Shown in pieces: positions 3,188 to 35,454 of a stretch of DNA of 35,454 nucleotides. The notes under the pieces are model-generated. The model was not told the DNA's origin. It saw only the letters and a program-made list of their open reading frames with translations, and did not search any database. The number at the start of each line of letters is the position of its first letter. The first letter of the stretch is position 1. The DNA comes from an uncultured cyanobacterium (GTDB lineage: Bacteria > Cyanobacteriota > Cyanobacteriia > Cyanobacteriales > Microcystaceae), in assembly GCA_963807635.1 (NCBI GenBank), contig CAWEDJ010000049.1, positions 1-35,454 on the forward strand. The letters are read 5' to 3'. The position numbers were made by a program, and so were the translations under genes.

Positions 3188-4426
3188 CTAAACAATTTCA
3201 ATTTCAGGCAATGGAAAGATCAACTTACCCCCAGAGGCTAGATATTCGGCCTCTCGTCGAATAATGGAATCGCGGAAGTGCCAAGGCAACACCAGCATAT
3301 AGTCAGGTTTCATTGCTCGCACTTCTGCTTCAGATAAAATTGGAATATTGGTACCGGGGGTAAAGGCACCAAACTTATCAGGATTTACCTCAGCAACGCA
3401 AGCTATGTCTTGGTTGGTAAAATTACAAAACTGTAACAACACATTACCCTTAGTTGAAGCACCATAGCCAACGACTTTCTTATTATCTGCATTTAAGGCT
3501 CGAATTAAGCGAGATAGATCATCCCGATGACGAAAAACTCGCTCTTCAAAATCTCGAAAAGGCTTTGGTGTATGTAAACCCATACGATCTTCTTGACCAA
3601 GTAGCCAGTCGATAACGGGATCATTTGATTTAAGATTGGAAGACTTTTTAGCAACTGTCACTGCAAAACTTCCTCCGTTAACAGCATTCATTTGAACATC
3701 GATCAGTTTCAGACCACATTGTTCAATCAAATTTTTAACAACACCAAGAGAGTAGTATTCTAAGTGCTCGTGACATACAGTGTCATAGGAGTTCATTCGC
3801 AACATCGTGGGCATATAGCTTTGCTCAAAATGCCAAACACCGTCATCATCTAAAATCTCGTAAATATCGGCGACGAAATCGCGGGGTTTCTCTAAATCAT
3901 AAAACATGGCAATTGATGTAACAATCTTGGCTTTACGAGCCTGAAATTTTGATTGGAATGCTTTGGCGGTAAAGAAATCTGGTACTAGCTCTATCCCATT
4001 TTGATAAAATTCAGAGAATTTTTTTCCAGTAGGATCAATTCCAATCCGATTAAGTCCATTGACATTATAGGCCGACAATAATGTTGCGTCGTTACTTCCT
4101 ATATCTAGAACAATATCTTCGGATGTTAAAGGACGTAAACGTTGTAAGTAATTAACTTTGTACTGAAGATGTTGAACCATCGATTGATTTAACCCTGATC
4201 GGTAGCCATAATTCATCCCATACATCTCGGCTAAATCGTATGAGTGACGCAATTGTAATAGCCCACTATCTGGACACCAAACCAGTTGTAACGGCCCCTC
4301 TGTTATTGGTGTATCTATTTTTCTGGGAAAAACACCAGTTAATGACTGTAAACCCAAGTCAAGAACTGTTATTAAGTTTTTACTACCGCTAATCCGACAA
4401 GACTCAATTTCATTACGACTATTCAT
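3188..4426 (-). CDS. NDP-hexose C3-methyltransferase (sugar C-methyltransferase family)
   Basis: LDIGSNDATLL, IGIDP, YDTVCHEHLEYYSL, NGGSF, GYGASTKGNVLL, LVLPWHF. ATG at 4426 is preceded by GAGG. Confidence 0.88.
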   Translation of the reverse strand: MNSRNEIESCRISGSKNLITVLDLGLQSLTGVFPRKIDTPITEGPLQLVWCPDSGLLQLRHSYDLAEMYGMNYGYRSGLNQSMVQHLQYKVNYLQRLRPLTSEDIVLDIGSNDATLLSAYNVNGLNRIGIDPTGKKFSEFYQNGIELVPDFFTAKAFQSKFQARKAKIVTSIAMFYDLEKPRDFVADIYEILDDDGVWHFEQSYMPTMLRMNSYDTVCHEHLEYYSLGVVKNLIEQCGLKLIDVQMNAVNGGSFAVTVAKKSSNLKSNDPVIDWLLGQEDRMGLHTPKPFRDFEERVFRHRDDLSRLIRALNADNKKVVGYGASTKGNVLLQFCNFTNQDIACVAEVNPDKFGAFTPGTNIPILSEAEVRAMKPDYMLVLPWHFRDSIIRREAEYLASGGKLIFPLPEIEIV

Positions 4427-4889
4427 AGGGTAAACCTCATCTGAAATACAATAATAGGGTTGTTGGGTAATAAAACAAAAAATAGCTGTAATGCTTATGT
4501 ATACTGGGGTTCGGAGATTTTGCAAGAAAATCGCTCAAATGCTTGCCAGATAGGGGGTTCAAAGATTTTTGAGCTGATTACCCGACAGATCCAATAAGTC
4601 GAAGGTGATAAAGACTTCACTTTTAGGGAAAACTAATGGCAACTTGCTGTTCAAAAGGAAGCGAGACCATCATACAACAATATTGACTCTTGCATAAGAA
4701 TCACTTTAATGCATAGAGTCGTTTTGATTAATTACTCTATGGAGAACCTCGAATAAAAGACTGTGTTAACAAAATGTTGGTTAAGGAAATTTACTTGATA
4801 TACTGTAGCAAGGAGAAACCGTTTTAAATAACTAAAAATGTGTTTTGTAACTCAGCATCTTCTAACGTAATCGGGTTTATCTTTAGGGC

Positions 4890-11774: not shown

Positions 11775-12641
11775 CTAATTAATTATTTTTAATAAACCTC
11801 GTTCCAAAGTATTATTGGAAGTCCAACCAAAGGATTTTAATTTATCTAAGTTAGCTTCAGAAAACATAATTTCACCTTCTCGATAAGGCACAGTTCCAAA
11901 CTTTAAAATGGTTTTTGACTGAGTTAGTCTGTGTATCATTTCAACTAACTCTCGAATCTTTATTGCTTTACCACTTCCAACAGGATATTCTTGGTAAAAG
12001 CTAGGCTCTTTTTGAACTTTTTTAAGAAGTAGTTGATAAATAGAGACAACATCATCTATGTGGATAAAGTCTCTCTTTTGTTCTCCTGCTGTTAACTTCA
12101 ACTCTTCTATATTATTAAGACAGTTTTTGATAATGTAGGTTACAAATTTAGAATCATCATCACCTGCTCCAAAAATGTGTTCCAGCTTAAGATTAACAAA
12201 TTTAATTGTTTGCTTTTGGACAAATTGTTTACCCCAATCTAGAAAGTGCTTTTTTGAAGTCGAATAGATATTTAAATATGATGGCAACGTAGTATCAGTA
12301 TTTAAAAAGATATCAGTCTTAAAAAAAGTGGCAGCCTCCAACAATTTTAACGGAAAAATGACATTTGCTTCGACTATTTCAGTAGAACTTTCATTATTGC
12401 GTCCATAACAGGTTGCTGTATGAATGACCGAATCAATTTTACCTAAATCTTCAAACGGCTTCGTTAACTCACACTGATCAATATCATAAACACAACACTG
12501 GGACAAAATATTTTCAATGCGTTTAGTATTAGAAAAACTACGTTTTAGAATGATAACTCGATAATTATCTTTTAGTAAAGCCTTAACTAAATGGCTCCCT
12601 AAAAATCCCGTTGCTCCTGTTATGAGTACAGTTGATGACAT
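11775..12641 (-). CDS. prt: CDP-3,6-dideoxyhexose 4-reductase (CDP-paratose synthase Prt/RfbS; Abe/RfbJ family)
   Basis: TGATGFLGSHL, TATCYGR, NTDT, YSTSK, LEHIFGAGDDDSKF, GEQKRDFIHIDD. Position before tyv favours Prt over Abe. Confidence 0.8.
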   Translation of the reverse strand: MSSTVLITGATGFLGSHLVKALLKDNYRVIILKRSFSNTKRIENILSQCCVYDIDQCELTKPFEDLGKIDSVIHTATCYGRNNESSTEIVEANVIFPLKLLEAATFFKTDIFLNTDTTLPSYLNIYSTSKKHFLDWGKQFVQKQTIKFVNLKLEHIFGAGDDDSKFVTYIIKNCLNNIEELKLTAGEQKRDFIHIDDVVSIYQLLLKKVQKEPSFYQEYPVGSGKAIKIRELVEMIHRLTQSKTILKFGTVPYREGEIMFSEANLDKLKSFGWTSNNTLERGLLKIIN

Positions 12642-12662
12642 TTTTAGTGGTTCAAATTTATA

Positions 12663-14428
12663 CTACTTTAGCTCAACAAAATCCTTAATAACCTGACAAA
12701 TAAAATCTATCTCATCTGAACCAATGCCTGGATAAGTCCCCAGAAAAATGGCTTCGTTCATTAGTCGATCTGCACCTATCGTTTCAACCGCAATACGCAA
12801 TGTATCGGGCTGAGTTTTACGCAAATCCACAAAAACTGGCTGACGGAGCAAATTACCGCCAAACAACATTCGCGTACCGATACGATATTTTTCTAAATGC
12901 CGAGCTAAATCTGCTCGCTTAAAAGGAGCCGTTGGTTTCACTAATAATAAAAATCCGAACCAACTACAATCGCTACGATGTCCAGAATCATTCCACACAA
13001 AACCATCATGAGAATTCCAGCCAACGGCATGGGTCGGTAAGCTAAACTCAAACACGTCTTCTAAACCAGCTAAACCCTTGCGTAACATTTGCCAATTTTG
13101 TTTACGTGCTTCAATAAATTGGGGCAAACGTCGTAACTGAACACGACCGATCGCAGCCTGAGGATCAAGAGGTTTGAGATTATAACCCAAGTGAGAATAA
13201 ATATACTTGTGGTCATAGCCATCGGGGAGTTCACCCAACTGCCAATCGTAGCGTTTATTACAAGTGTTATCTTTTCCACTCGGACACCAACAATCCCGAC
13301 CCCAATCTCGAAAACTCTCTGCCACTCGTTTTAATTTTGCACTACGAACAATATTCACTGATCCGCCTTCACCCATTGTTAAATGATGCGGTGGATAAAA
13401 TGACTGGGTACTAATATCACCCCAGGTTCCTGTCCAACGAACAACGCGATCGCTTCCTTCATCTAAGCCTGGAGTATTCTCTTTAAAACCTAAAGCTTCG
13501 GCTTCTGAACGCGGCAAAGAATAGCTGCAACCTAACGCATCACAGTTATCTTCAATTAACCAAAGATTATACTTACGACAAAAAGCTAAAACAGCACCTA
13601 AGTCAAAGGGATTTCCTAACGCATGGGCGACCATCACCGCTTTGGTTTTACCTGGTGAATAAGCTTGCTCTAACTGATCTACTCGTAAATTACTTGTAAC
13701 AGGGTCATTATCAATAAAAACTGGGATACAGCCATTTTGTATAATGGGTGATACTGTCGTTGGAAAACCTGCCGCACAGGTAATAACTTCATCTCCTTTT
13801 TTTAACCGCCTAGACTCTTCGATTAATGGAGAGGTTAACGTACTTAAGGCAATTAAATTAGCGGATGATCCCGAATTAACGGCTAAACAGTAATGGACTC
13901 CTAAAAAAGCAGCTAATTCTTTTTCAAAGGCGGCTCCTTCAACTCCTAAGGTTAACCAAAAATCTAGAGTAGTAGAAACGGCCGCTTGCTACTTCCTCAC
14001 TAGTGAATACTCGTCCTGCGTAGGGAACACTTCCTCCCGAAAACGTAGGTCGTAGAGGAATCAATTGCGGGTCTATTTTGAAGATGTTTGAGGTGAGAGA
14101 ATTGACGGGTATTTTGTAATACAATAGCGCGATGAACTTCTGCTAATGTCTCTGTTTTTAATTGAATTCCTTGCTCGACAATAGTATTCAAAGGTACTGT
14201 CAAGGGTCGGTCTGTACGAATATAAACTGTTTTCTCAAGGATGCCTTCCGCTAAATCTTTGGAAGTAACCTCAAGTAAGTTTGGATAATCAGGATTATTA
14301 GTAACTTTTAAAAGACTGATTTCACCTTCTGAATCTACTTCTGATAATACCAAGGCAAATTGGTTTTGTTGCTTATTCGTATCTTCTGACGGTACAAACA
14401 GTTTAATGATTTGTCCTAATAACTTCAC
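12663..14428 (-). CDS. rfbH: CDP-4-keto-6-deoxyglucose 3-dehydrase (E1, RfbH/DdhC) with an about 100-aa N-terminal extra domain; two 1-nt frameshifts
   Basis: Removing one base at 14040-14043 and one at 13986-13987 gives ...VPYAGRVFTSEEVAAAVSTTLDFWLTLG...VNSGSSANL...AGFPTTV...AHALGNPF...EDNCDALG...SFYPPHHLTMGEGG (His in place of the PLP Lys)...RDCWC.....NTC, about 587 aa. GTG start at 14428 with upstream GAGG. Confidence 0.9.
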
Positions 14429-14494
14429 AATTAATCCTCGGCTACTTTGTGGGAATCGTTTGAGAGTAAAATCTTTAAGATCAGAGCAAAAATA

Positions 14495-15577
14495 TCAAGA
14501 AGCCTGATAATTAGCAATATCAGCTAAGACCTTGGCTTGAGCCTCTTTTGAATTGCTTAAGGTGTGGAGATACCAAAGCACCGTGCGTTCAATAGTGGTT
14601 GAAAAATTCCAGCGAGGCTGCCATCCCAGATGATGATAGGCTTTATCCGTTACTAGATTCAGTAAACCCGCTTCATGGGGGGCATTCGGGTCAGATTGAT
14701 CTTGCCAATCTCCTGGCCAATGACGTAGGATTTCCACTACTAAATTTTCTACTGTTCTGTTGGAACTGAGTAATGGGCCAAAGTTAAAAGCGGTACAAAC
14801 TTGAGCGAGTCGCTCTATGTCATTTTCTGTTAGATCTTGATAAATTTTTTCTGCTAACAATAAATAGCCACTTAAAGGCTCTAAAACGTGTTGCCAAGGT
14901 CGGGTTGCTTGGGGATTACGAACAGGGATTATTTCTTTCTTTTGGAGGGAACGGATAGCATCAGGTACAATGCGATCCTTTGCCCAATCGCCTCCTCCAA
15001 TTACATTACCCGCTCTTACACTGGCAATTTTAACGGGGCATCTACTATCGCTAAAAAAGGAACTTCTCCAAGAGGCGATCGCTAATTCTGCTCCTGCTTT
15101 ACTCGAACTATAGGGATCACGGCCTCCTAAATGGTCATTTTCTCGATATCCGTAGATCCATTCCCGATTTTCATAACATTTATCGGTGGTGATGAAGATA
15201 GCAACACAAGGATGATTGATTTTTCTTAGAGCTTCTAAGACATGAATTGTACCCATTACATTGGCATTCCACGTCTCAACAGGTTCTAGATAGGAAAACC
15301 TAACTAAGGGCTGAGCGGCTAAGTGAAAAACAACATCAGGCTGGGATTCTTGGATGAGTTTAGAAACTAAATCAGCATCGCGAATATCCCCTAAGTAATG
15401 AGTGAGATGTTTATCTAGTTCCAACTGCTCAAATAAAGCGGGTTGAGTATTAGGAGGCAAGCTAAGACCAATTACTTCTGCTCCTAACTCTAAGAGCCAA
15501 GTAGAAAGCCAAGACCCCTTAAATCCTGTATGACCCGTTAAAAAGACTTTTTTTCCTTGCCAAAAACTCAAGTTCAT
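14495..15577 (-). CDS. rfbG: CDP-glucose 4,6-dehydratase
   Basis: FWQGKKVFLTGHTGFKGSWL, HLAAQPLVR, TTDKCYEN, DPYSSSK, RAGNVIGGGDW, RPWQHVLEPL. ATG at 15577 overlaps the rfbF stop (ATGA). Confidence 0.95.
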   Translation of the reverse strand: MNLSFWQGKKVFLTGHTGFKGSWLSTWLLELGAEVIGLSLPPNTQPALFEQLELDKHLTHYLGDIRDADLVSKLIQESQPDVVFHLAAQPLVRFSYLEPVETWNANVMGTIHVLEALRKINHPCVAIFITTDKCYENREWIYGYRENDHLGGRDPYSSSKAGAELAIASWRSSFFSDSRCPVKIASVRAGNVIGGGDWAKDRIVPDAIRSLQKKEIIPVRNPQATRPWQHVLEPLSGYLLLAEKIYQDLTENDIERLAQVCTAFNFGPLLSSNRTVENLVVEILRHWPGDWQDQSDPNAPHEAGLLNLVTDKAYHHLGWQPRWNFSTTIERTVLWYLHTLSNSKEAQAKVLADIANYQAS

Positions 15578-16371
15578 CGCCACACCTGCCAAGGAGCTTG
15601 ATTCTTATTATGAAGGTCATTGAGAAGCTCTAATTCTCGATAGGTGTCCATACATTGCCAGAAGCCTTCATGCTGGTAAACGGCAAGTTCTCCTTTTTCC
15701 GCCAGAATATGTAATGGTTCAGCTTCAAAGACAGTGCTGTCATCTTGAATTAAGTCTAGAACCTTACGATGGAGAACAAAATATCCTCCATTAATCCAAC
15801 CTTCGCTAGTTTGTGGTTTTTCCTTAAATGTTCCTACTAGTTGATCCTGAATCACCATTTCTCCAAAACGAGAAGGGGGACGAACGGCAGTTACTGTTGC
15901 TAATTTACCGTGACTTTTGTGATAGTCAACTAATGCTTTAATATCAACATCAGCTACACCATCGCCATAGGTTGCCAAAAATAAGTCAGCTCCAATTTTA
16001 TCTAGATAGGGAGTTAATCTTTTTAAACGTCCGCCTGTTAAAGTCTCCTGCCCCGTATCGACCAACCACAATCTCCAGTCTTCTTCGTCGTGACCATTGT
16101 TTAACTTAGTAATACTTTTGTTTCCTAGCTCTAACAATATGTCGCTATGGTTCCAGTCATAATTGATAAAATAATCCCTGATTTGCTCTCCCTTATAACC
16201 CATGCACAACATAAAATCTTTAAATCCATAGTGGGCATAGGTTTTCATGATGTGCCAAATCATCGGGCGATCGCCTACTGTAATCATTGGCTTAGGGCGG
16301 AATTCTGTCTCTTCTCTCAGACGAGTTCCTTTTCCACCACATAAAATTGCTACAGGTATGGATGATTTCAT
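15574..16371 (-). CDS. rfbF: Glucose-1-phosphate cytidylyltransferase
   Basis: ILCGGKGTRLREETEFRPKPM, DTGQETLTGGRLKR, TYGDGV, WINGGYF, GFWQCMDT. Confidence 0.95.
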   Translation of the reverse strand: MKSSIPVAILCGGKGTRLREETEFRPKPMITVGDRPMIWHIMKTYAHYGFKDFMLCMGYKGEQIRDYFINYDWNHSDILLELGNKSITKLNNGHDEEDWRLWLVDTGQETLTGGRLKRLTPYLDKIGADLFLATYGDGVADVDIKALVDYHKSHGKLATVTAVRPPSRFGEMVIQDQLVGTFKEKPQTSEGWINGGYFVLHRKVLDLIQDDSTVFEAEPLHILAEKGELAVYQHEGFWQCMDTYRELELLNDLHNKNQAPWQVWR

Positions 16372-18443: not shown

Positions 18444-19205
18444 CTACGCTAACCATATAACTGATGCTGCCAGATATATGCCGCCTAGAAAATTGGCTGA
18501 GCGCTTGTCGTAACGAGTCGCAAGCGCACGATATTGTTTGAGTTTCGCAAAGAAGTTTTCGACTAAATGACGCGCTTTATACAAAAATGTATCATAAGGG
18601 CGAGGTTCTTTTCGATTACTTTTCGAGGGTATCACAGGTATTATCCCTCTTTTTTCTAGAACCTTAATGACTCTATCGTCTGCGTCATAGGCTTTGTCCC
18701 CTAGCATCGCTTCTGCTTCTACGTTAGGCAATAGCACATCGGCTCCGTCTAAATCACACGCTTGACCTGGCGTTAGGAAAAAAGAGACTGGATTCCCTAA
18801 TGCGTCCACTACGGCATGGATTTTTGTACTTAATCCTCCTGTACTCCTTCCTATATCTTCTTCCTCTGCGCTACTGTTTTTTGCTCCTGCACTGTGTTGA
18901 TGCTCTCTCACAATCGTTGCATCTATCATTGCGTATTCATTATCAGCATCCTGCGCTAAGTGCTTGAATACCTTTTCCCACACCCCTGATTTCGTCCATC
19001 GCGTAAAACGCGTGTGAATCACTCGAAAATCTCCAAACCTTTCGGGTAAGTCTCTCCAAGGAATGCCCGCTCTATATCGATATAATACGGCTTCAACAAA
19101 CAAACGATTATCTTTGGCTGTTACTCCCACATCTCCCTCTTTTCCAGGTAATAGCTCTTTTATTCTTTCCCATTGGTCATCCCGCAACGCATAACGCCTT
19201 GTCAT
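18444..19205 (-). CDS. IS5-family transposase (DUF4096 plus DDE)
   Basis: LRDDQWERIKELLP, DNRLFVEAVLY...GIPWRDLPERFG, IDATIVR.HQHSAG, GGLSTKIH, GDKAYD, YKARHLVENFFAKLKQYR. ATG at 19205 with GAGG. Confidence 0.95.
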   Translation of the reverse strand: MTRRYALRDDQWERIKELLPGKEGDVGVTAKDNRLFVEAVLYRYRAGIPWRDLPERFGDFRVIHTRFTRWTKSGVWEKVFKHLAQDADNEYAMIDATIVREHQHSAGAKNSSAEEEDIGRSTGGLSTKIHAVVDALGNPVSFFLTPGQACDLDGADVLLPNVEAEAMLGDKAYDADDRVIKVLEKRGIIPVIPSKSNRKEPRPYDTFLYKARHLVENFFAKLKQYRALATRYDKRSANFLGGIYLAASVIWLA

Positions 19206-19450
19206 ATTCACACCTCTCTTCAATGTATATTTTGTCATTTCATACTCTGTGCATTATTTGCCACTAATGTCAACCCCCCTAATTGATGACACGCTCTAGG
19301 TAATCAGCTATCACGAATTTAGATTGTATAATAATTTTATTGAAAGTTTTGTCACAACGGGATTAAAATTCTTTAGACAATTAACAAATTACCGTGTTAC
19401 GCTGTACAAGATTTAAACGCTCTAAATCTTCTCATTTAATAGGGTAAAAT

Positions 19451-24512: not shown

Positions 24513-26856
24513 TCAATTTAAGGATTGGCTCCGAGGGAAAAACCACGACGGGCGGTATGGGGTTTTGCACGCTTGGACTTCAAAATTAACGTGATCTGAG
24601 TTTGCCCCATTTTTAACCGTTAATGTCCATTGTCCAGGCTTTAGGGGCCAAAAGACCGAATCTTTATTTCCCTCTGCTATTTGTTTTCCATTTAACAACC
24701 ATTGCACCATCTCTTGATTGGGTCTAGCAATTTTTAATTCTAAACGAGGAGCCGAATTTCCCTGGGGAGATAAAAAGCGATCGCCGTCCTGGGGGAATAA
24801 AATTTTAAGCTGATGGGATTTTAGCTGAGTTTGGGGTTGTTTGGCTAACCATTCATTATATTCTGGCGGTAAATTGAGTTGATAGGGCTTATTATTGCTC
24901 GTAACAGCTTGATAAAAAGTATCGGGATGATTTTCGTAATCGGCTAAATCTTCTGGCCAAAAATATTCCTGGGTGACAGAAGGACAGGCGAGGGTCGGTT
25001 TTAATCCTGAAAGGGCGCAAATCGGACGTTTGACTAATTTTTCAGGCGGGGTAAAGGGTTGGGAAAAATTTTGTTCGTGTAAGCGCAAAAAAATCCGATT
25101 CCATAACGGGGCGGCTCCTGTCACCCCAGAAACCTGACGCATGGGTTCCCCGTCAAAATTTCCGATCCAGGTGGCGACCGTATAATCTCTGCTAAATCCG
25201 ACTGTCCAGGTATCCCGAAAATTAGAGGAAGTGCCTGTTTTAACGGCAGTTTCAAAGGGCAAATTTAAAATCGAATCGACTCCAAAGGCTTTGGCTCTTG
25301 CATAGCGATCGCTTAGCATATTCGTGATTAATTGCCAGCTAGGAGCATTTTGTAAAGAAACGGAAGCTTTTGGAAGAGAATCAGCCGTTTGAGAAACTTG
25401 AGTGACTAAGGGCGTGATTTTTCCTGCTTGCGCCATAATGCGATAGGCTCTCGCCAGTTCCCAGAGACTCACTTCCCCACTGCCCAGGGTTAAACCTAAA
25501 CCGTAATATTCGGGCGGCTGGGTTAAATGTTCAAATCCCAATTCTCGTAAACGGTTTAAAAAGCTTGCTACTCCAACTTTTTCTAGCACTTTGACGGCGG
25601 GAATATTGAGGGAATTCGCTAAGGCAATCCGAACTCTGGCAGGGCCATAGAAGGTCTCCGTATAATCCCTGGGACTGTAGAGTTTCGCCCCTGGAATGGC
25701 GTAATGGGCAGGAACGTCTGCCAAGACCGTATTGGGACGAATAACCTTGTTTTCTAATGCTAATTGATACAAAAAGGGTTTGAGAGTCGATCCAGGTTGC
25801 CTCAGAGCTTGTACGCCATCATTTCGACCCAAGGCCCGATCGCTGAAATAATCCGTCGAACCGACATAGGCCGAACACCTCCCCCGTAGAATTATCGAGA
25901 ACCAATGCCGCCGCCTGATGGACATTATGGGAATTTAGGGAATGAACCACTCCTCGGACTTGGCTTTCCACAAATTGTTGTAGGGATTTATCAATCGTCG
26001 TGGGAATTTGGGGAGAATGATCGGCGGGGAGTTGTTTCGCTAACCAAAACAAAAAATGGGGCGCGGCTAAAATTCCCTGTTGTCGGGGTTGCAAATTGAC
26101 GGTTTCCTGTTGAATTCGTTTTGCTTGATGAGCGGTCAGATAACCCTCAGCCACCATGCGATTTAACACATATTTTTGGCGTTTTTTGAGGGATTTCCAA
26201 GCCGTATAGGGATTCAAATAGGTGGGATTATTCGGAATCGCGGCAAGTAAGCTAGATTGAGCAATATTTAACTCCGTTGCGGGAATGCCAAAATAAACCC
26301 GTGCCGCCGCTTCGACTCCATAAAGATTGCCCCCCATCGGTAAACGGTTAACATAGGCTTCTAAAATTTCATCCCGATTCATGCCTGCAACTAATCGCCA
26401 GGAAAGCCAAATTTCTCCTAATTTCGCCGACAAAGTGCGGGGAGAATTATCTAACATCCGCGCTAGTTGCATGGTAATCGTGGAAGCCCCACTCATTACT
26501 TTCTGGGTCTGGACAACCTGTAGAAGAGAACGGGCGATCGCCTTTAAATTCAGCGCACCATGTTGGTAAAATCCGCCATCTTCCGCCGCCAGGATAGCCT
26601 GAACAAATACGGGAGAAACGTCTTTCAGGGGAACCACTGCGGTATGGTCTTGATCTCGACTGAGAATCGTTCCCAGGGGTAATCCATTGCGATCGCTAAA
26701 TTCTACGGCTCGATCATTTTGTGGGATGTCTTGACGATGGATCGGAGCGAGATAGGGCAAGGCGCGACCGATTAATAGAAGAGATAATAAAATCAGTAGC
26801 GATCGCTGAGTCCAAGGCCGTTGTTGCCAAAGATGTTGGTAAAGAAAGTTAAGCAT
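24513..26856 (-). CDS. pbpC: Penicillin-binding protein 1C (frameshift near 25875)
   Basis: Transglycosylase motifs AAED..FYQH and GASTITMQLAR; transpeptidase motifs RQPGSTLKP, SLN, KTGTS. The two ORFs join as DNSTGEV-AYVGSTDYF. Confidence 0.9.
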
Positions 26857-26901
26857 TTTTTCATAAACACCTTTTAAAATGATAAATATTAACAAATAAA
26901 A

Positions 26902-28827
26902 CTAAGGTAATGTATCAGGTAATAATGGCGATTTTTCAAATAATGGTGACTTCTCAAAATTACTATTACTATTAATATAAAAATTTCGTTTTTTGGGATC
27001 TTCTCTTATAATATAATGAGATTTTTCTAGACTCAAAAATATTTTCCTAATTTTACTCTTAAAATACTCATATTTTTTAATATCAACTACTTCTTTTGAA
27101 GTGCGAAAATAAAGTATGTTTGATACTAAGTTGGCACTAGCAAATTCCTGCAAACTATATTTGTTAAGATGATAAATAGTGTTTAAAACATTCTTATAAT
27201 CATTGTTTAAATAATTATAATCTTTGCCAAAAATAGTCCTCAATTCTAATGTAAAATCGTCTTTTATCAATTCTCTATCAACTAAATAGACGGAATAAGG
27301 ATAAGGACTATCAGGATGTTTAAAAATCAATCCTTTCCCTTCTAAAGTTGCAATAATTTCAAAATGATTATTATCATGAGTTAATAAAATTGTATAACGT
27401 TCCAAGTAATTAAGCTTTTCAGTTTTAAAAAAATAGGATAATACAATTTTTTCTTCTATGCTAAGTTCTTTTCCATTACATTTCTTTTTTAAATAACCCG
27501 AAAAACTATCCAGCCAAGATTCTGACGATTCATCATAAACTTTTCCCTTGGGGATAACTAAATTAATATCTTCTCTTCTTAAAACATAATAAGGAATATC
27601 AATTTCATTATTTAAACAAGCATTCGTTAGGGAAGCCATGCCAATTCCTCGGCCTTCCCATTTATCATAGACTTTAAGAATTTCTGCGAGTTTAGGATTA
27701 CTGGCTTTAGGATCGGGAATAATTTGTCTAATTTTGATCTGATCTTGATCAACCGTAATGAGTTGTTGGGAACGAAAATTACCTGGATTCCGAATTTCTA
27801 AACTTTGGTTAGGGCGAATATTAATAATAACAAATTGATCACTACGATAATCTCGATGAGCGAGAGCATTATTAATTGTTTCCCGAATTAATTTTAAAGG
27901 ATATTCGGGTAACTTACTGCCACCTTTGGCATAGCTGATTCCTATTTGAATATTTTGCAGACAAAAATCATAGCTATCATCCATTAATTTCAAAATATTA
28001 TTTTTAAATATCTTTTTATTGCTTGCTAATTCTGTAAACGAATCAACTTCTACATAGGCATCTACTTGGCAACGTCCACCAACAAAATCATCAATATATT
28101 TACCACAAACTAACATTCCTAAAAGCGTTGGTTTTTGCTCCTTATTAATAAAGGATTTACGACTTAAAAAGGGAATAGCCGCTTCTAGATCAGACTTAAG
28201 CGTTTCAATGCGAGTAGATTGATTAAGGGATTGAATATATTCATTAAGTTTATCCAAATCTAAATCCTCAATGGTTGCATTGTCAACGGAATAAAGTTCT
28301 CTCGCACGCTTCCACTCTTCTCGTCGTTCTAATTGAGCATTAATTTCATCTTGGCTAATCTTATAATCACCAGTAATTTTTCGTTCATAAGCTATTTTTT
28401 TCCAACAAACATATTTTTGATCTTCTGGTAAAGCTCGGATGTCAATAATACAAATTCTTTTATCTAAAAAATCACGAATTTCCCAATGAAAAAATTCTCT
28501 TAAGTCTAACAAGTTAGATTCTACATTTTTGTCTTGAGAATCAGAAAATTGTTGAGCTAATCTGATTAAATTATTTTCATTACCATCATCATAACCTGTG
28601 AGTGTATATTTCGGAGGCTGCTTGGATTGGTTTAAATTTTCGTAAATTCCCACAATAATTGTGCCTCCCTGGGTATTTAAAAATGCACAGGCAGATTTAT
28701 ACAATTCATCCCACTTACCCCCACTAGATAGGTCTTTTAATTCAAAAGAATCAGTCTCTACTGGCTCGTAAGTGGCATTTTCGAGGCAGTTTTTGAGTTT
28801 GAGTAAGATATCATCAAGTTTGCTCAT
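26902..28827 (-). CDS. AlbA_2 (Schlafen-like) domain plus RecG-C-like/HATPase_c_4 domain protein
   Basis: ETDSFELK, CAFLNTQGGTIIVGI; YPLKLIRETINNALAHRDY, LEIRNPG, NPKLAEIL, EGRGIGM. Confidence 0.85.
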   Translation of the reverse strand: MSKLDDILLKLKNCLENATYEPVETDSFELKDLSSGGKWDELYKSACAFLNTQGGTIIVGIYENLNQSKQPPKYTLTGYDDGNENNLIRLAQQFSDSQDKNVESNLLDLREFFHWEIRDFLDKRICIIDIRALPEDQKYVCWKKIAYERKITGDYKISQDEINAQLERREEWKRARELYSVDNATIEDLDLDKLNEYIQSLNQSTRIETLKSDLEAAIPFLSRKSFINKEQKPTLLGMLVCGKYIDDFVGGRCQVDAYVEVDSFTELASNKKIFKNNILKLMDDSYDFCLQNIQIGISYAKGGSKLPEYPLKLIRETINNALAHRDYRSDQFVIINIRPNQSLEIRNPGNFRSQQLITVDQDQIKIRQIIPDPKASNPKLAEILKVYDKWEGRGIGMASLTNACLNNEIDIPYYVLRREDINLVIPKGKVYDESSESWLDSFSGYLKKKCNGKELSIEEKIVLSYFFKTEKLNYLERYTILLTHDNNHFEIIATLEGKGLIFKHPDSPYPYSVYLVDRELIKDDFTLELRTIFGKDYNYLNNDYKNVLNTIYHLNKYSLQEFASANLVSNILYFRTSKEVVDIKKYEYFKSKIRKIFLSLEKSHYIIREDPKKRNFYINSNSNFEKSPLFEKSPLLPDTLP

Positions 28828-28954
28828 TAATAAAATGGTAGTGAATATGATCACATCAAGCTATTACATTATAACAAATCTCATGATTTGCCTATTAAAG
28901 TAGTATTTAGGCTTTCTACACGATCGCTTCTATTTTCTCCGTTAAACTCTCCCT

Positions 28955-34049: not shown

Positions 34050-35454
34050 ATGTAGTAGAGTGATAGTCTTCAAAAACAACACCTCGAAAACCACAGACAG
34101 CCCATGTTGGACATACTAACACTCTTGCAATGCCTAGTACCAGAAATAAAAGTGACAACGATGCGTCAGTTGAGGCGTATTATCATGGCAATGTTAGGCA
34201 TGAGCGGACGAGTGACAATGTTGGGAATCTCCCGTTGGGCAGGAACTGGTGGTAGTTATCGGACAGTGATGAGATTTTTTCATACAGTCATCCCCTGGGC
34301 AACAGTATTTTGGATATTTTTTCGTCGGCATTTGTTCTCTCCAAACGATGTTTATTTGCTGGCAGGAGACGAGGTAGTGATAACGAAAGCGGGCAAAAAA
34401 ACTTATGGATTAGATAGGTTCTTTTCAAGTCTATTCAGTAAACCAATATCGGGACTATCTTTCTTTACATTATCGTTAGTAAGTGTTGAACAAAGACACT
34501 CATTTCCGATTCAGATAGAACAGGTAATCAAGAGGGATGTAGAAAAAAGTAGTATCTCGCCAATTCCAGAAGTAAAACCTCAAGAAAAACGGGAACGAGG
34601 ACGACCAAAAGGAAGTAAGAACAAAAATAAAAAAGAGGTAGTTCTTACACCTGAATTATTACGAATTAAGAAAATGATTAATGAGTTAGTCAAGTTAATA
34701 GCAAACTTTATTCCCCTCACTTACTTGGTCTTAGACGGTCATTTTGGAAACAACAATGCTTTACAGATGGCGAAGCAGGTTAACTTCCACATCATTTCCA
34801 AGTTACGTCATGATTCAGCACTGTATATACCTTACCAACATTCTGACCCGAATCATCCCTCTCGTCGTAAATACGGGGATAAGCTGAACTGGCAGAATAT
34901 TTCTGATGAATATTTGCGTCAAAGTATTATTGAGGAAGATATCCAAACCGATACTTATCAAGCTACCTTACTGCACAAAGAATTTGCCCAGTCCCTGAAT
35001 GTAGTGATTTTGGTGAAAACCAATCTCAAAACTAATGCACGCAGTCACGTAATTCTCTTTTCCAGTGACTTAACTTTATCCTATGACAAAATTATCGACT
35101 ACTATAAACTACGCTTCCAAATCGAATTTAATTTTCGTGATGCCAAGCAGTTTTGGGGATTGGAAGATTTTATGAACCTCGGTCAAACCTCTGTTACTAA
35201 TGCGGCTAACCTTTCTTTTTTCATGGTCAATTTATCCTATCTTCTTCTAGCTCAGTTCCGTGAAGATAATCCTGGCTCTGGCATTGTTGATCTTAAAGCT
35301 TACTACCGTGGTTTGAACTATGCTCATGCAATGTTAAAAATGCTTCCCGAACAGCCAGAGCCTATTTTATTAGCCCAGATTTTTGCCAAGCTTACTTCTC
35401 TTGGTCGTATTCACAATGTTTCTACAACAATTGAACTCTCGTAATTTGGCAAAG
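34008..35454 (+). mobile_element. IS4-type insertion sequence; the window ends inside the right inverted repeat
   Basis: Left end CAATACCTTAGCCAAA (34008-34023). The last 10 nt TTTGGCAAAG match 9/10 of its inner part in reverse complement. Confidence 0.85.
34104..35444 (+). CDS. IS4/IS701-like DDE transposase
   Basis: LAGDEV, LVLDGHFG, and YKLRFQIEFNFRDAK, an exact Y(2)R(3)E(6)K signature. Confidence 0.92.
   Translation: MLDILTLLQCLVPEIKVTTMRQLRRIIMAMLGMSGRVTMLGISRWAGTGGSYRTVMRFFHTVIPWATVFWIFFRRHLFSPNDVYLLAGDEVVITKAGKKTYGLDRFFSSLFSKPISGLSFFTLSLVSVEQRHSFPIQIEQVIKRDVEKSSISPIPEVKPQEKRERGRPKGSKNKNKKEVVLTPELLRIKKMINELVKLIANFIPLTYLVLDGHFGNNNALQMAKQVNFHIISKLRHDSALYIPYQHSDPNHPSRRKYGDKLNWQNISDEYLRQSIIEEDIQTDTYQATLLHKEFAQSLNVVILVKTNLKTNARSHVILFSSDLTLSYDKIIDYYKLRFQIEFNFRDAKQFWGLEDFMNLGQTSVTNAANLSFFMVNLSYLLLAQFREDNPGSGIVDLKAYYRGLNYAHAMLKMLPEQPEPILLAQIFAKLTSLGRIHNVSTTIELS

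Follow-up and report, generated by a model that had tools for sequence, protein, structure and literature searches.

How does a toxin-like domain come to stand in front of an O-antigen enzyme, and what has become of it there? The question is raised by the rfbH gene on contig CAWEDJ010000049.1 of an uncultured cyanobacterium of the Microcystaceae (GenBank assembly GCA_963807635.1), of which positions 1 to 35,454 were analysed (the window). RfbH, also known as DdhC or AscC, is the E1 enzyme CDP-6-deoxy-L-threo-D-glycero-4-hexulose 3-dehydrase, and in the window its reading frame opens with a domain resembling the MazF/PemK toxins of type II toxin-antitoxin (TA) systems. It is probable that this gene belongs to a conserved MazF-RfbH two-domain family and that the window carries a disarmed, antitoxin-less form of it, kept as an N-terminal module of the enzyme.

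The N-terminal domain and its junction with RfbH

The fusion open reading frame (ORF) lies on the minus strand at 14428..14000, starts with GTG (14426-14428) and codes for 142 residues, MKLLGQIIKLFVPSEDTNKQQNQFALVLSE...LAEVHRAIVLQNTRQFSHLKHLQNRPAID. A domain of 108 residues opens the ORF, which continues without a stop into the N-terminus of RfbH, AIVLQNTRQFSHLKHLQNRPAID. All residues that a first-pass annotation, made from the sequence alone, had quoted as running open into RfbH are present in this ORF, without stop or frameshift. The MazF/PemK-like β-barrel corresponds to residues 1-91 (14156..14428, minus strand), as delimited by an AlphaFold2 (AF2) model, Foldseek and motif columns.

Against the Pfam model PemK_toxin (PF02452), the window domain scored 14.1 bits (E 0.057) over profile positions 4-105 of 109, with a cut-off of 23.1. 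Because this score alone is only suggestive, the identification as MazF/PemK rests on the relatives of the domain, on a profile search and on the fold. The Pfam model was passed by the fused relatives P0001 and P0002 (31 bits) and P0005 (25.8 bits), and failed by the fused P0003 (16 bits) and P0004 (no match). A profile of 14 fused domains retrieved 1075 proteins at E ≤ 0.001 from 1.84 billion representatives, and most of the 150 matches listed had 100-130 residues, the size of free toxins.

In the AF2 model of window residues 1-108, built from a 125-row alignment (predicted local distance difference test, pLDDT, 89.7; predicted template modelling score, pTM, 0.81), strands at 6-12, 21-27, 36-43, 51-54, 59-61, 68-79 and 83-90 are followed by a C-terminal helix at 92-107. 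Foldseek returned 70 matches in the PDB at E ≤ 0.001, and the top ones listed were all MazF/PemK-family toxins with a probability of 1.00, coming from S. aureus, M. tuberculosis (MazF-mt1 and MazF-mt3), B. subtilis (YdcE) and E. coli. Template modelling (TM) scores to solved MazF chains were 0.65-0.78, with 5hkc_B at TM 0.78 and 4mzp_C at E 1.6e-5. When a 125-sequence profile was compared with PDB sequences, 12 of the 13 matches were named MazF/EndoA/PemK/YdcE-type toxins (best E 4.8e-7). The PemK/MazF-like domain proposed by the first-pass annotation is thus borne out by model, Foldseek and PDB profile; of the Pfam, AlphaFold and Foldseek comparisons that it had suggested, the fold match to MazF stood and the Pfam score of the window domain stayed under the cut-off.

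The catalytic roles of Arg-Pro and Thr are known from work on E. coli and B. subtilis MazF. In the window domain, Gln23-Phe24 stand where the family has Arg-Pro (Arg29-Pro30 in E. coli MazF), and Thr43 is kept. Arg-Pro could be identified in 128 of 128 stand-alone relatives and in 62 of 86 fused rows, and 16 of the 24 exceptions belong to the clade of the window, so that the replacement of the catalytic pair, noted before by eye, is confirmed. The net charge of -4 and the loss of the Arg argue against endoribonuclease activity of the window domain, and in this lineage it is most likely no longer an RNase.

To describe the junction, L025, the closest intact fusion, was modelled at full length (mean pLDDT 71; blocks of the N-domain 81-93, residues 11-20 only 49). 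The model contains a single helix at 92-117, followed by a low-confidence linker. Residues 2..437 of the solved E1 dehydrase 3bcx_B align to model residues 95..587 (Z 42.0, root-mean-square deviation 3.3 Å, 399 aligned residues, 46% identity). Since residue 2 of 3bcx_B falls on residue 95 of the model, RfbH begins with the very helix that closes the MazF fold. In the domain model and the full-length model, residues 92-117 (TLAEVHRAIVLQNTRQFSHLKHLQNR; 14078..14155, minus strand) thus double as the C-terminal helix of MazF and the N-terminal helix of RfbH. The stretch AIVLQNTRQFSHL had already been likened to the first helix of RfbH, and this alignment places it there; the spacing is also the same in fused and unfused RfbH, as seen in the unfused P0196 (...LRKEIIEKTIEYYQARFAQQEF...) and the fused P0199 (...LRKLPRISVNGMMETIHEKQEF...), which share one 90% identity cluster and the same 22-residue spacing. 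A separate internal start of RfbH was considered and found no support: window codons 97-105 hold no in-frame ATG, GTG or TTG, and the GTG and TTG of the same-genus genome G005 are not conserved.

The body of RfbH (CDP-4-keto-6-deoxyglucose 3-dehydrase, E1) follows on the minus strand at 12663..14058 in two further frames, with its stop codon at 12663-12665. Its longest ORF in the window, of 324 residues, matched Pfam DegT_DnrJ_EryC1 (E 8e-37), and the sequence match of RfbH to 3bcx had an E of 4e-123. The intact homologs P0001, P0004 and P0005 scored 622-625 bits against the NCBIfam RfbH equivalog NF011936, for which the cut-off is 423, and P0004 is 91% identical to L025. Fused cyanobacterial RfbH has inserts of ~25 (PRSEAEALGFKENSPGLDEGSDRVVRW), 10 and 6 residues at RfbH alignment columns ~330-355, 493-510 and 563-568, which unfused RfbH of related genera does not have. 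Still larger inserts at the first of these sites are present in the longer fusions P0169 and P0172. Unfused RfbH frames of 439-458 residues were found in 6 of 61 genomes searched.

Distribution of the fusion and its two forms

In G005, rfbG is followed by a 64-residue ORF and then by a PemK-RfbH frame with an identical junction and no frameshift. Its PemK domain is 48% identical to that of the window, and the frame leaves the contig after 244 residues. A search for longer forms showed that five protein clusters of 587-595 residues carry the fusion, and the P0004 cluster, with 30 members on 9 contigs, is of the window's own type. The repaired length of 587 residues proposed for the window protein equals that of intact homologs, and other full-length fusions were indeed found. 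DNA scans identified the fusion at four genome loci (a Snowella metagenome-assembled genome, MAG; the isolate Cyanobium sp. Morenito 9A2; two cyanobacterial MAGs) and ten metagenome loci; in 9 of these 14 the ORF is complete, with 587-630 residues, and the remaining five run off their contigs.

Among 14 longer proteins from the profile search, ten had RfbH after the domain, two ended in a fusion-type junction and two were other proteins. An alignment of eight N-domains retrieved 42 long proteins, 41 of them non-cyanobacterial fusions with DegT, and in 29 of these PemK was also precomputed. The 42nd, the metagenomic P0194 (356 residues), joins a PemK-like domain to a RimJ/RimL-type GNAT acetyltransferase. 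In total, 46 protein clusters at 90% identity contain the fusion. One 540-residue member is named as RfbH of a Mariniphaga MAG, and one 90% cluster of the Mariniphaga type mixes fused (540 residues) and unfused (436-442 residues) RfbH. To judge from these sequences, conservation of the fusion extends from cyanobacteria to a Bacteroidota MAG. As a lead only, PemK_toxin was present in 41% and 25% of the members of ~530-residue and ~800-residue 'RfbH' clusters of a protein atlas, in which Thermodesulfobacteriota and Verrucomicrobiota were the commonest taxa.

An even sample of 401 cyanobacterial genomes contained a PemK-like match (E ≤ 1e-8) in 26, and the fused kind solely in the genome of the window; the PemK-like open frames in the other sampled genomes had 86-145 residues. 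With one fused case in 401, the fusion is rare among the genomes sampled. The genome of the window (G000) also has a stand-alone pair at locus L002 (contig C39:55323-58601, ORFs 1283-1504 and 1477-1815), in which a 73-residue antitoxin-like ORF overlaps a 112-residue PemK toxin that retains Arg-Pro (Pfam E 5.7e-7). Directly downstream lies another TA-like pair of small ORFs.

When the fused loci with a visible upstream region were compared, two forms could be distinguished. The armed form (L020, the Cyanobium locus L021, L022, the Snowella-type locus L027, L029, L030/L031 and L033, together with L028) has the motif K/R-R-P, or Tyr-Pro in L028. Its fusion is preceded by an ORF of 64-68 residues, which overlaps it by 4 bp except in L022, where the stop lies 2 bp before the fusion start. 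The disarmed form comprises the window, L024, L025, L026 and L023, with Gln-Phe or Gln-Leu in the clade of the window and a highly divergent sequence in L023. These loci have no upstream ORF, and their fusion starts 65-66 bp after rfbG (14 bp in L023). The small ORF is thus present in all eight loci that keep the motif Pro (seven Arg-Pro, one Tyr-Pro) and in none of the five without it. The spacer of the window (66 bp, 14429..14494, minus strand) carries a GAGGA Shine-Dalgarno sequence at 14435-14439 and contains no ORF, in agreement with the earlier remark that it holds no antitoxin gene; the matching gap in G005/L020 is 216 bp long and holds the 64-residue ORF. Net charges of the domains are +1 to +8 in all eight armed loci and -1 to -6 in all five disarmed loci. 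With the conserved Lys, Arg and Pro lost and an acidic instead of a basic domain, the RNA-binding role that had been suggested for the window domain is disfavoured. Nor is the fusion the one-off for which it had been taken: the window holds a derived state of a widespread fusion, whose commoner form resembles a live toxin with a dedicated antitoxin.

In the small protein, an acidic C-terminal tail comes after the conserved motif LQMPSF[LIV]R[GD]. Matches of a hidden Markov model of this ORF were confined to the armed loci among 2644 ORFs of all loci, and none occurred at 22 stand-alone PemK loci. The L020 member matched none of the Pfam families and no NCBIfam model; on eight members Pfam gave chance-level matches only (E 0.042 and 0.37), in one of the eight. 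In the protein atlas, the scores of the small ORF (0.82) did not exceed chance, and an AF2212-like cluster at rank 22 is no more than a lead; the PADLOC models of defence systems matched neither the fusion nor the domain nor the small ORF. Complex prediction for an armed domain with the small protein, using alignments built for this analysis, gave 0.70, 0.58 and 0.23 in three runs (median 0.58; best control 0.00), to be read against a mark that 116 of 157 solved complexes and 2 of 215 mismatches reached, 18 of the 157 and both mismatches at 0.60 or below. Contacts agreed by at least 71% between runs, and the pLDDT of the partner was at least 63.

Selection, frameshifts and competing explanations

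Ratios of nonsynonymous to synonymous change (dN/dS) were determined by the Nei-Gojobori method in six collinear Snowella-type sequences. For domain codons 1-88, dN/dS was 0.15-0.39 in six disarmed pairs and 0.13 in the single armed pair. In all pairs it was 0.04-0.17 for the helix and junction codons 89-124 and 0.01-0.08 for RfbH, and 0.03-0.07 for the frameshifted copy of the window. The protein change of the domain is 3-5 times that of RfbH (dN 0.05-0.11 versus 0.008-0.035). The four window-type sequences with DNA have exactly 108 aligned domain residues each, without indels. The disarmed domain is still under purifying selection, and in this sense the term 'domesticated' used in the first-pass annotation is justified.

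Downstream of the junction, the rfbH frame of the window is interrupted twice. RfbH resumes in frame +1 from ~14058 (PLRPTFSGGSVPYAGRVFTSEEV) and then in frame +2 from 13987 to the stop at 12663 (AAVSTTLDFWLTLG...). The first +1 insertion on the minus strand is an extra T at 14059..14060 (GAT[T]CC), the second an extra C at 13988 in GTAGCAAGC (GTAG[C]AAGC); both are extra in comparison with L020, L024, L025, L026 and L027. As had been argued earlier, the fusion is genuine and not made by these frameshifts, since both lie downstream of the MazF-RfbH junction and intact relatives share that junction. No public sequencing run matched more than 27% of sampled words when the source reads were sought. 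Contigs were compared at the frameshift sites from four runs of four studies, none of them the source sample. The letter at 13988 is missing from every covering contig (runs X1 and X8), and at 14056-14060 contigs of all four runs omit one letter; one minor X3 contig (depth 5.6 of 22.1) did not show the omission. In three of the four runs, one contig each appeared to join 13987 to 14060, skipping the 72 letters 13988-14059. Most probably the alignment was split here in a divergent stretch; a loose end at 13987 continues into homologous sequence.

A PbpC-like class A penicillin-binding protein gene of the window is likewise split (24513-26895, minus strand), with a transglycosylase ORF at 25819-26895 and a transpeptidase ORF at 24513-25925. 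It contains three +1 insertions at ~26876, 25873 and 24569, and the ortholog in the same-genus genome G004 is one 797-residue frame with 96% identity. All five window-specific coding indels are therefore +1 insertions. Because of this, and because RfbH shows no relaxed selection, the rfbH frameshifts are likely an assembly or sequencing error rather than biology; if they were real, the inactivation would be very recent. A further extra base was seen at 12653, in the short intergenic spacer that follows the rfbH stop, by comparison with L024 and L025. The split gene adjoins a 650-residue protein with an N-terminal Schlafen/AlbA_2 domain (26902-28854, minus strand), and the counterpart region in G004 contains a run of N.

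We favour the following reading of these results. In a conserved two-domain family, a MazF/PemK-fold domain is joined to RfbH by one helix that both share. Its commoner form would be a type II TA pair inside the rfb operon, with the toxin covalently tied to the enzyme. The lineage of the window, together with L024, L025, L026 and P0004, represents a derived state, with the antitoxin gone, Arg-Pro changed to Gln-Phe or Gln-Leu and the domain turned acidic. The dead domain may now act as a folded N-terminal module that is difficult for RfbH to lose. It would supply the ribosome-binding site and the start codon and pack against the first helix of RfbH itself.

Four other explanations were weighed against this reading. 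That the fusion is an artefact, produced by a missed stop codon or a mis-join of separate mazF and rfbH genes, would fit the indel problems of the window assembly. It has next to no chance of being right, as the same junction recurs in the nine complete ORFs, in the 46 protein clusters and in the Cyanobium isolate, and the junction codons are themselves under purifying selection. The locus could also be a real, recent pseudogene of this strain, in which no RfbH and only a 142-residue orphan domain can be translated. Phage pressure often leads to the loss of O-antigen genes, neither insertion sits in a long homopolymer, and both are present in the assembly as given. We nevertheless find a pseudogene rather doubtful: every one of the five coding indels is a +1 insertion, three of them in a conserved penicillin-binding protein gene, selection on the RfbH of the window is not relaxed, and the contigs of relatives omit the base at 13988 in all covering cases and that at 14060 in all but the one minor X3 contig.

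The remaining two explanations concern what the disarmed domain does. If it had been co-opted for a new job, such as binding of RNA, of a redox partner or of an O-antigen protein, or regulation of RfbH, the persistence of purifying selection after the loss of motif and antitoxin and the confidently folded barrel in the models would be accounted for, and a docking role is conceivable, given that E3 families were absent from the 23 window ORFs scanned. The change from a basic to an acidic domain and the loss of its conserved residues speak against a role in RNA binding; a partner for the domain could not be identified, its protein sequence changes 3-5 times faster than that of RfbH, and the inter-domain linker was modelled at low confidence. 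Co-option is considered improbable. It is likewise improbable that the domain is a leftover, without function, of a selfish TA cassette at the 5' end of rfbH and survives only as provider of start codon and ribosome-binding site. Such a relic would explain that the toxin domain is far more diverged than RfbH and that antitoxin and catalytic residues were lost together, and the Mariniphaga-type cluster of fused and unfused RfbH indicates that the enzyme can in principle do without the domain. A mere leader would, however, be expected to drift neutrally or to shrink, and instead 108 residues are kept without indels at a dN/dS of 0.15-0.39.

Several points weigh against the favoured reading itself. 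The Pfam score of the window domain is below the cut-off and no better than chance, and the fold match is partly circular in that the AF2 alignment is rich in PemK proteins and the model is not independent of sequence. The selection ratios of the domain come from 88 codons in related, non-independent pairs, and the role of a structural module is a putative one. For the armed form, toxicity, RNase activity and antitoxin binding are predicted properties, and the complex score for armed domain and small protein lends weak support to such binding. The link between motif and antitoxin is imperfect: L028 has Tyr-Pro and keeps the ORF, and P0003 has Phe-Pro. In both, an Arg sits 3-4 residues before this pair, and L028 may represent an intermediate state or a shifted catalytic loop. 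The joint loss of antitoxin and motif corresponds to about two independent events, in the clade of the window and in L023, and not to five.

The history of the locus adds two further points of this kind. Between armed and disarmed loci, the DNA from the last ~30 codons of rfbG to ~14175 is ~50-55% identical by eye, and the flanks ~87-90%; synonymous sites of codons 1-88 are saturated, against a dS of ~0.65 in the flanking RfbH. A simple recent decay in place of the armed into the disarmed form was rejected, since divergence in the variable block greatly exceeds that of the flanks, at synonymous sites too. Hence the two forms represent either old alleles or cassettes that were exchanged. In addition, a single clade for all fused domains was rejected (approximately unbiased test, p-AU 0.017) in a subset of 87 rows (32 fused, hand-picked; 55 stand-alone, random) and 111 columns. 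In the tree of 206 domains, the label 'fused' needs 5 changes, compared with a mean of 61 after shuffling. The trees left out domain matches spanning fewer than 70 profile positions or coming from proteins longer than 1000 residues, and 11 further rows (P0074, P0008 and nine near-duplicates from the window's own cluster).

The armed form might do more than sit in the operon. It could be a working checkpoint on the dideoxyhexose branch of O-antigen synthesis that polices the retention of the surface sugar, an idea that we regard as a long shot. The toxin would be made only as part of RfbH, and a labile antitoxin would come from the same operon. If the rfb operon were silenced, deleted or truncated, for example when a mutant evades a phage whose receptor is the O-antigen, the stable toxin-enzyme would be freed and the cell would arrest. 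The clade of the window would then have evaded this control through inactivation of its toxin and loss of the antitoxin.

Gene cluster and comparison with known systems

The fusion ORF is enclosed by a polysaccharide cluster of the O-antigen type, which runs on the minus strand from 16371 down to ~1354. It contains, in this order, rfbF, rfbG, the fusion ORF, two short-chain dehydrogenase/epimerase genes, three family-2 glycosyltransferases, a Wzx-like flippase, an EpsG-like protein, a C-methyltransferase and a GDP-mannose-dehydratase-like gene. The first gene of the CDP-sugar pathway, rfbF (15574..16371), encodes a glucose-1-phosphate cytidylyltransferase (NCBIfam TIGR02623, E 1.4e-104), and rfbG (14495..15592), directly upstream of the fusion, a CDP-glucose 4,6-dehydratase (TIGR02622, E 5e-152), the last ~30 codons of which fall, in the DNA alignment, inside the block that differs between the two cassette forms. 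Directly downstream, a short-chain dehydrogenase/epimerase (11775..12641, minus strand; Pfam Epimerase, E 4e-36; no NCBIfam model at cut-off) likely acts in a later step on the CDP-sugar. A Pfam scan of the 23 window ORFs of at least 110 residues identified no domain families of E3 (ferredoxin-NADH reductase type) in the window. The sugar C-methyltransferase of the cluster has two domains (3188-4525). An IS4/IS5-type transposase with DUF4096 and DDE_Tnp_1 (18444-19238, minus strand) lies just past the rfbF end of the cluster, and a DDE_5 type transposase (34104-35444, plus strand) at the far end of the window.

Full-text searches of the literature found no description of a MazF/PemK-RfbH fusion, and it is not mentioned in the matching passages of PMC2701414, PMC3493377, PMC7285500 and PMC3218107. 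The architecture is already present in databases, where it goes only by the names 'RfbH' or 'CDP-6-deoxy-D-xylo-4-hexulose-3-dehydrase'. In current annotation, fusion proteins are called simply 'RfbH', and the partner ORF has no match among the Pfam families. TA toxins are normally small free proteins; here a toxin-type domain has a helix and the reading frame in common with a core O-antigen enzyme. The disarmed copies offer a natural comparison, having lost the motif Pro, the basic surface and the partner gene together while the fold is still under selection. They would thus provide a testable case of a selfish toxin becoming a fixed part of a host enzyme, and they raise the question whether TA modules can guard surface-polysaccharide genes.

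With the MazF/PemK family (Kid, EndoA/YdcE, ChpBK; PF02452) the fused domain shares the SH3-like barrel with C-terminal helix and the sequence-profile similarity, and in the armed relatives Arg-Pro and Thr are kept as well, with a small gene upstream that overlaps by 4 bp and codes for an acidic tail. It differs in that it is no free protein of ~110 residues, its last helix continuing as a 50-kDa enzyme. The window differs further by Gln-Phe, its acidic domain and the lack of an antitoxin gene, and the armed relatives by a partner ORF that matches no Pfam antitoxin family. The enzyme part resembles RfbH/DdhC/AscC (3BCX, 3BB8) in sequence, structure and equivalog model, and rfbH of the window follows rfbF and rfbG as in the classic rfb clusters. 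Unlike these enzymes, the fusion has ~95 extra N-terminal residues and the inserts of its clade, the copy in the window is frameshifted, and no E3 reductase gene was seen in its cluster.

In EzeT and CapRel, fused TA proteins, the partner of the toxin is an antitoxin or a phage sensor. There, too, the toxin domain does not stand alone but is tied covalently to a second domain; in the present fusion, however, this second part is a housekeeping sugar-nucleotide enzyme, and any antitoxin is encoded by a separate gene. There are also chromosomal TA cassettes that stabilise variable islands such as superintegrons. The fusion is similar to them in that a TA-like pair lies in a horizontally mobile and very variable O-antigen cluster and the history of its block differs from that of the flanks, but it differs in that the toxin shares frame and helix with a gene of the operon, which leaves no clean excision.

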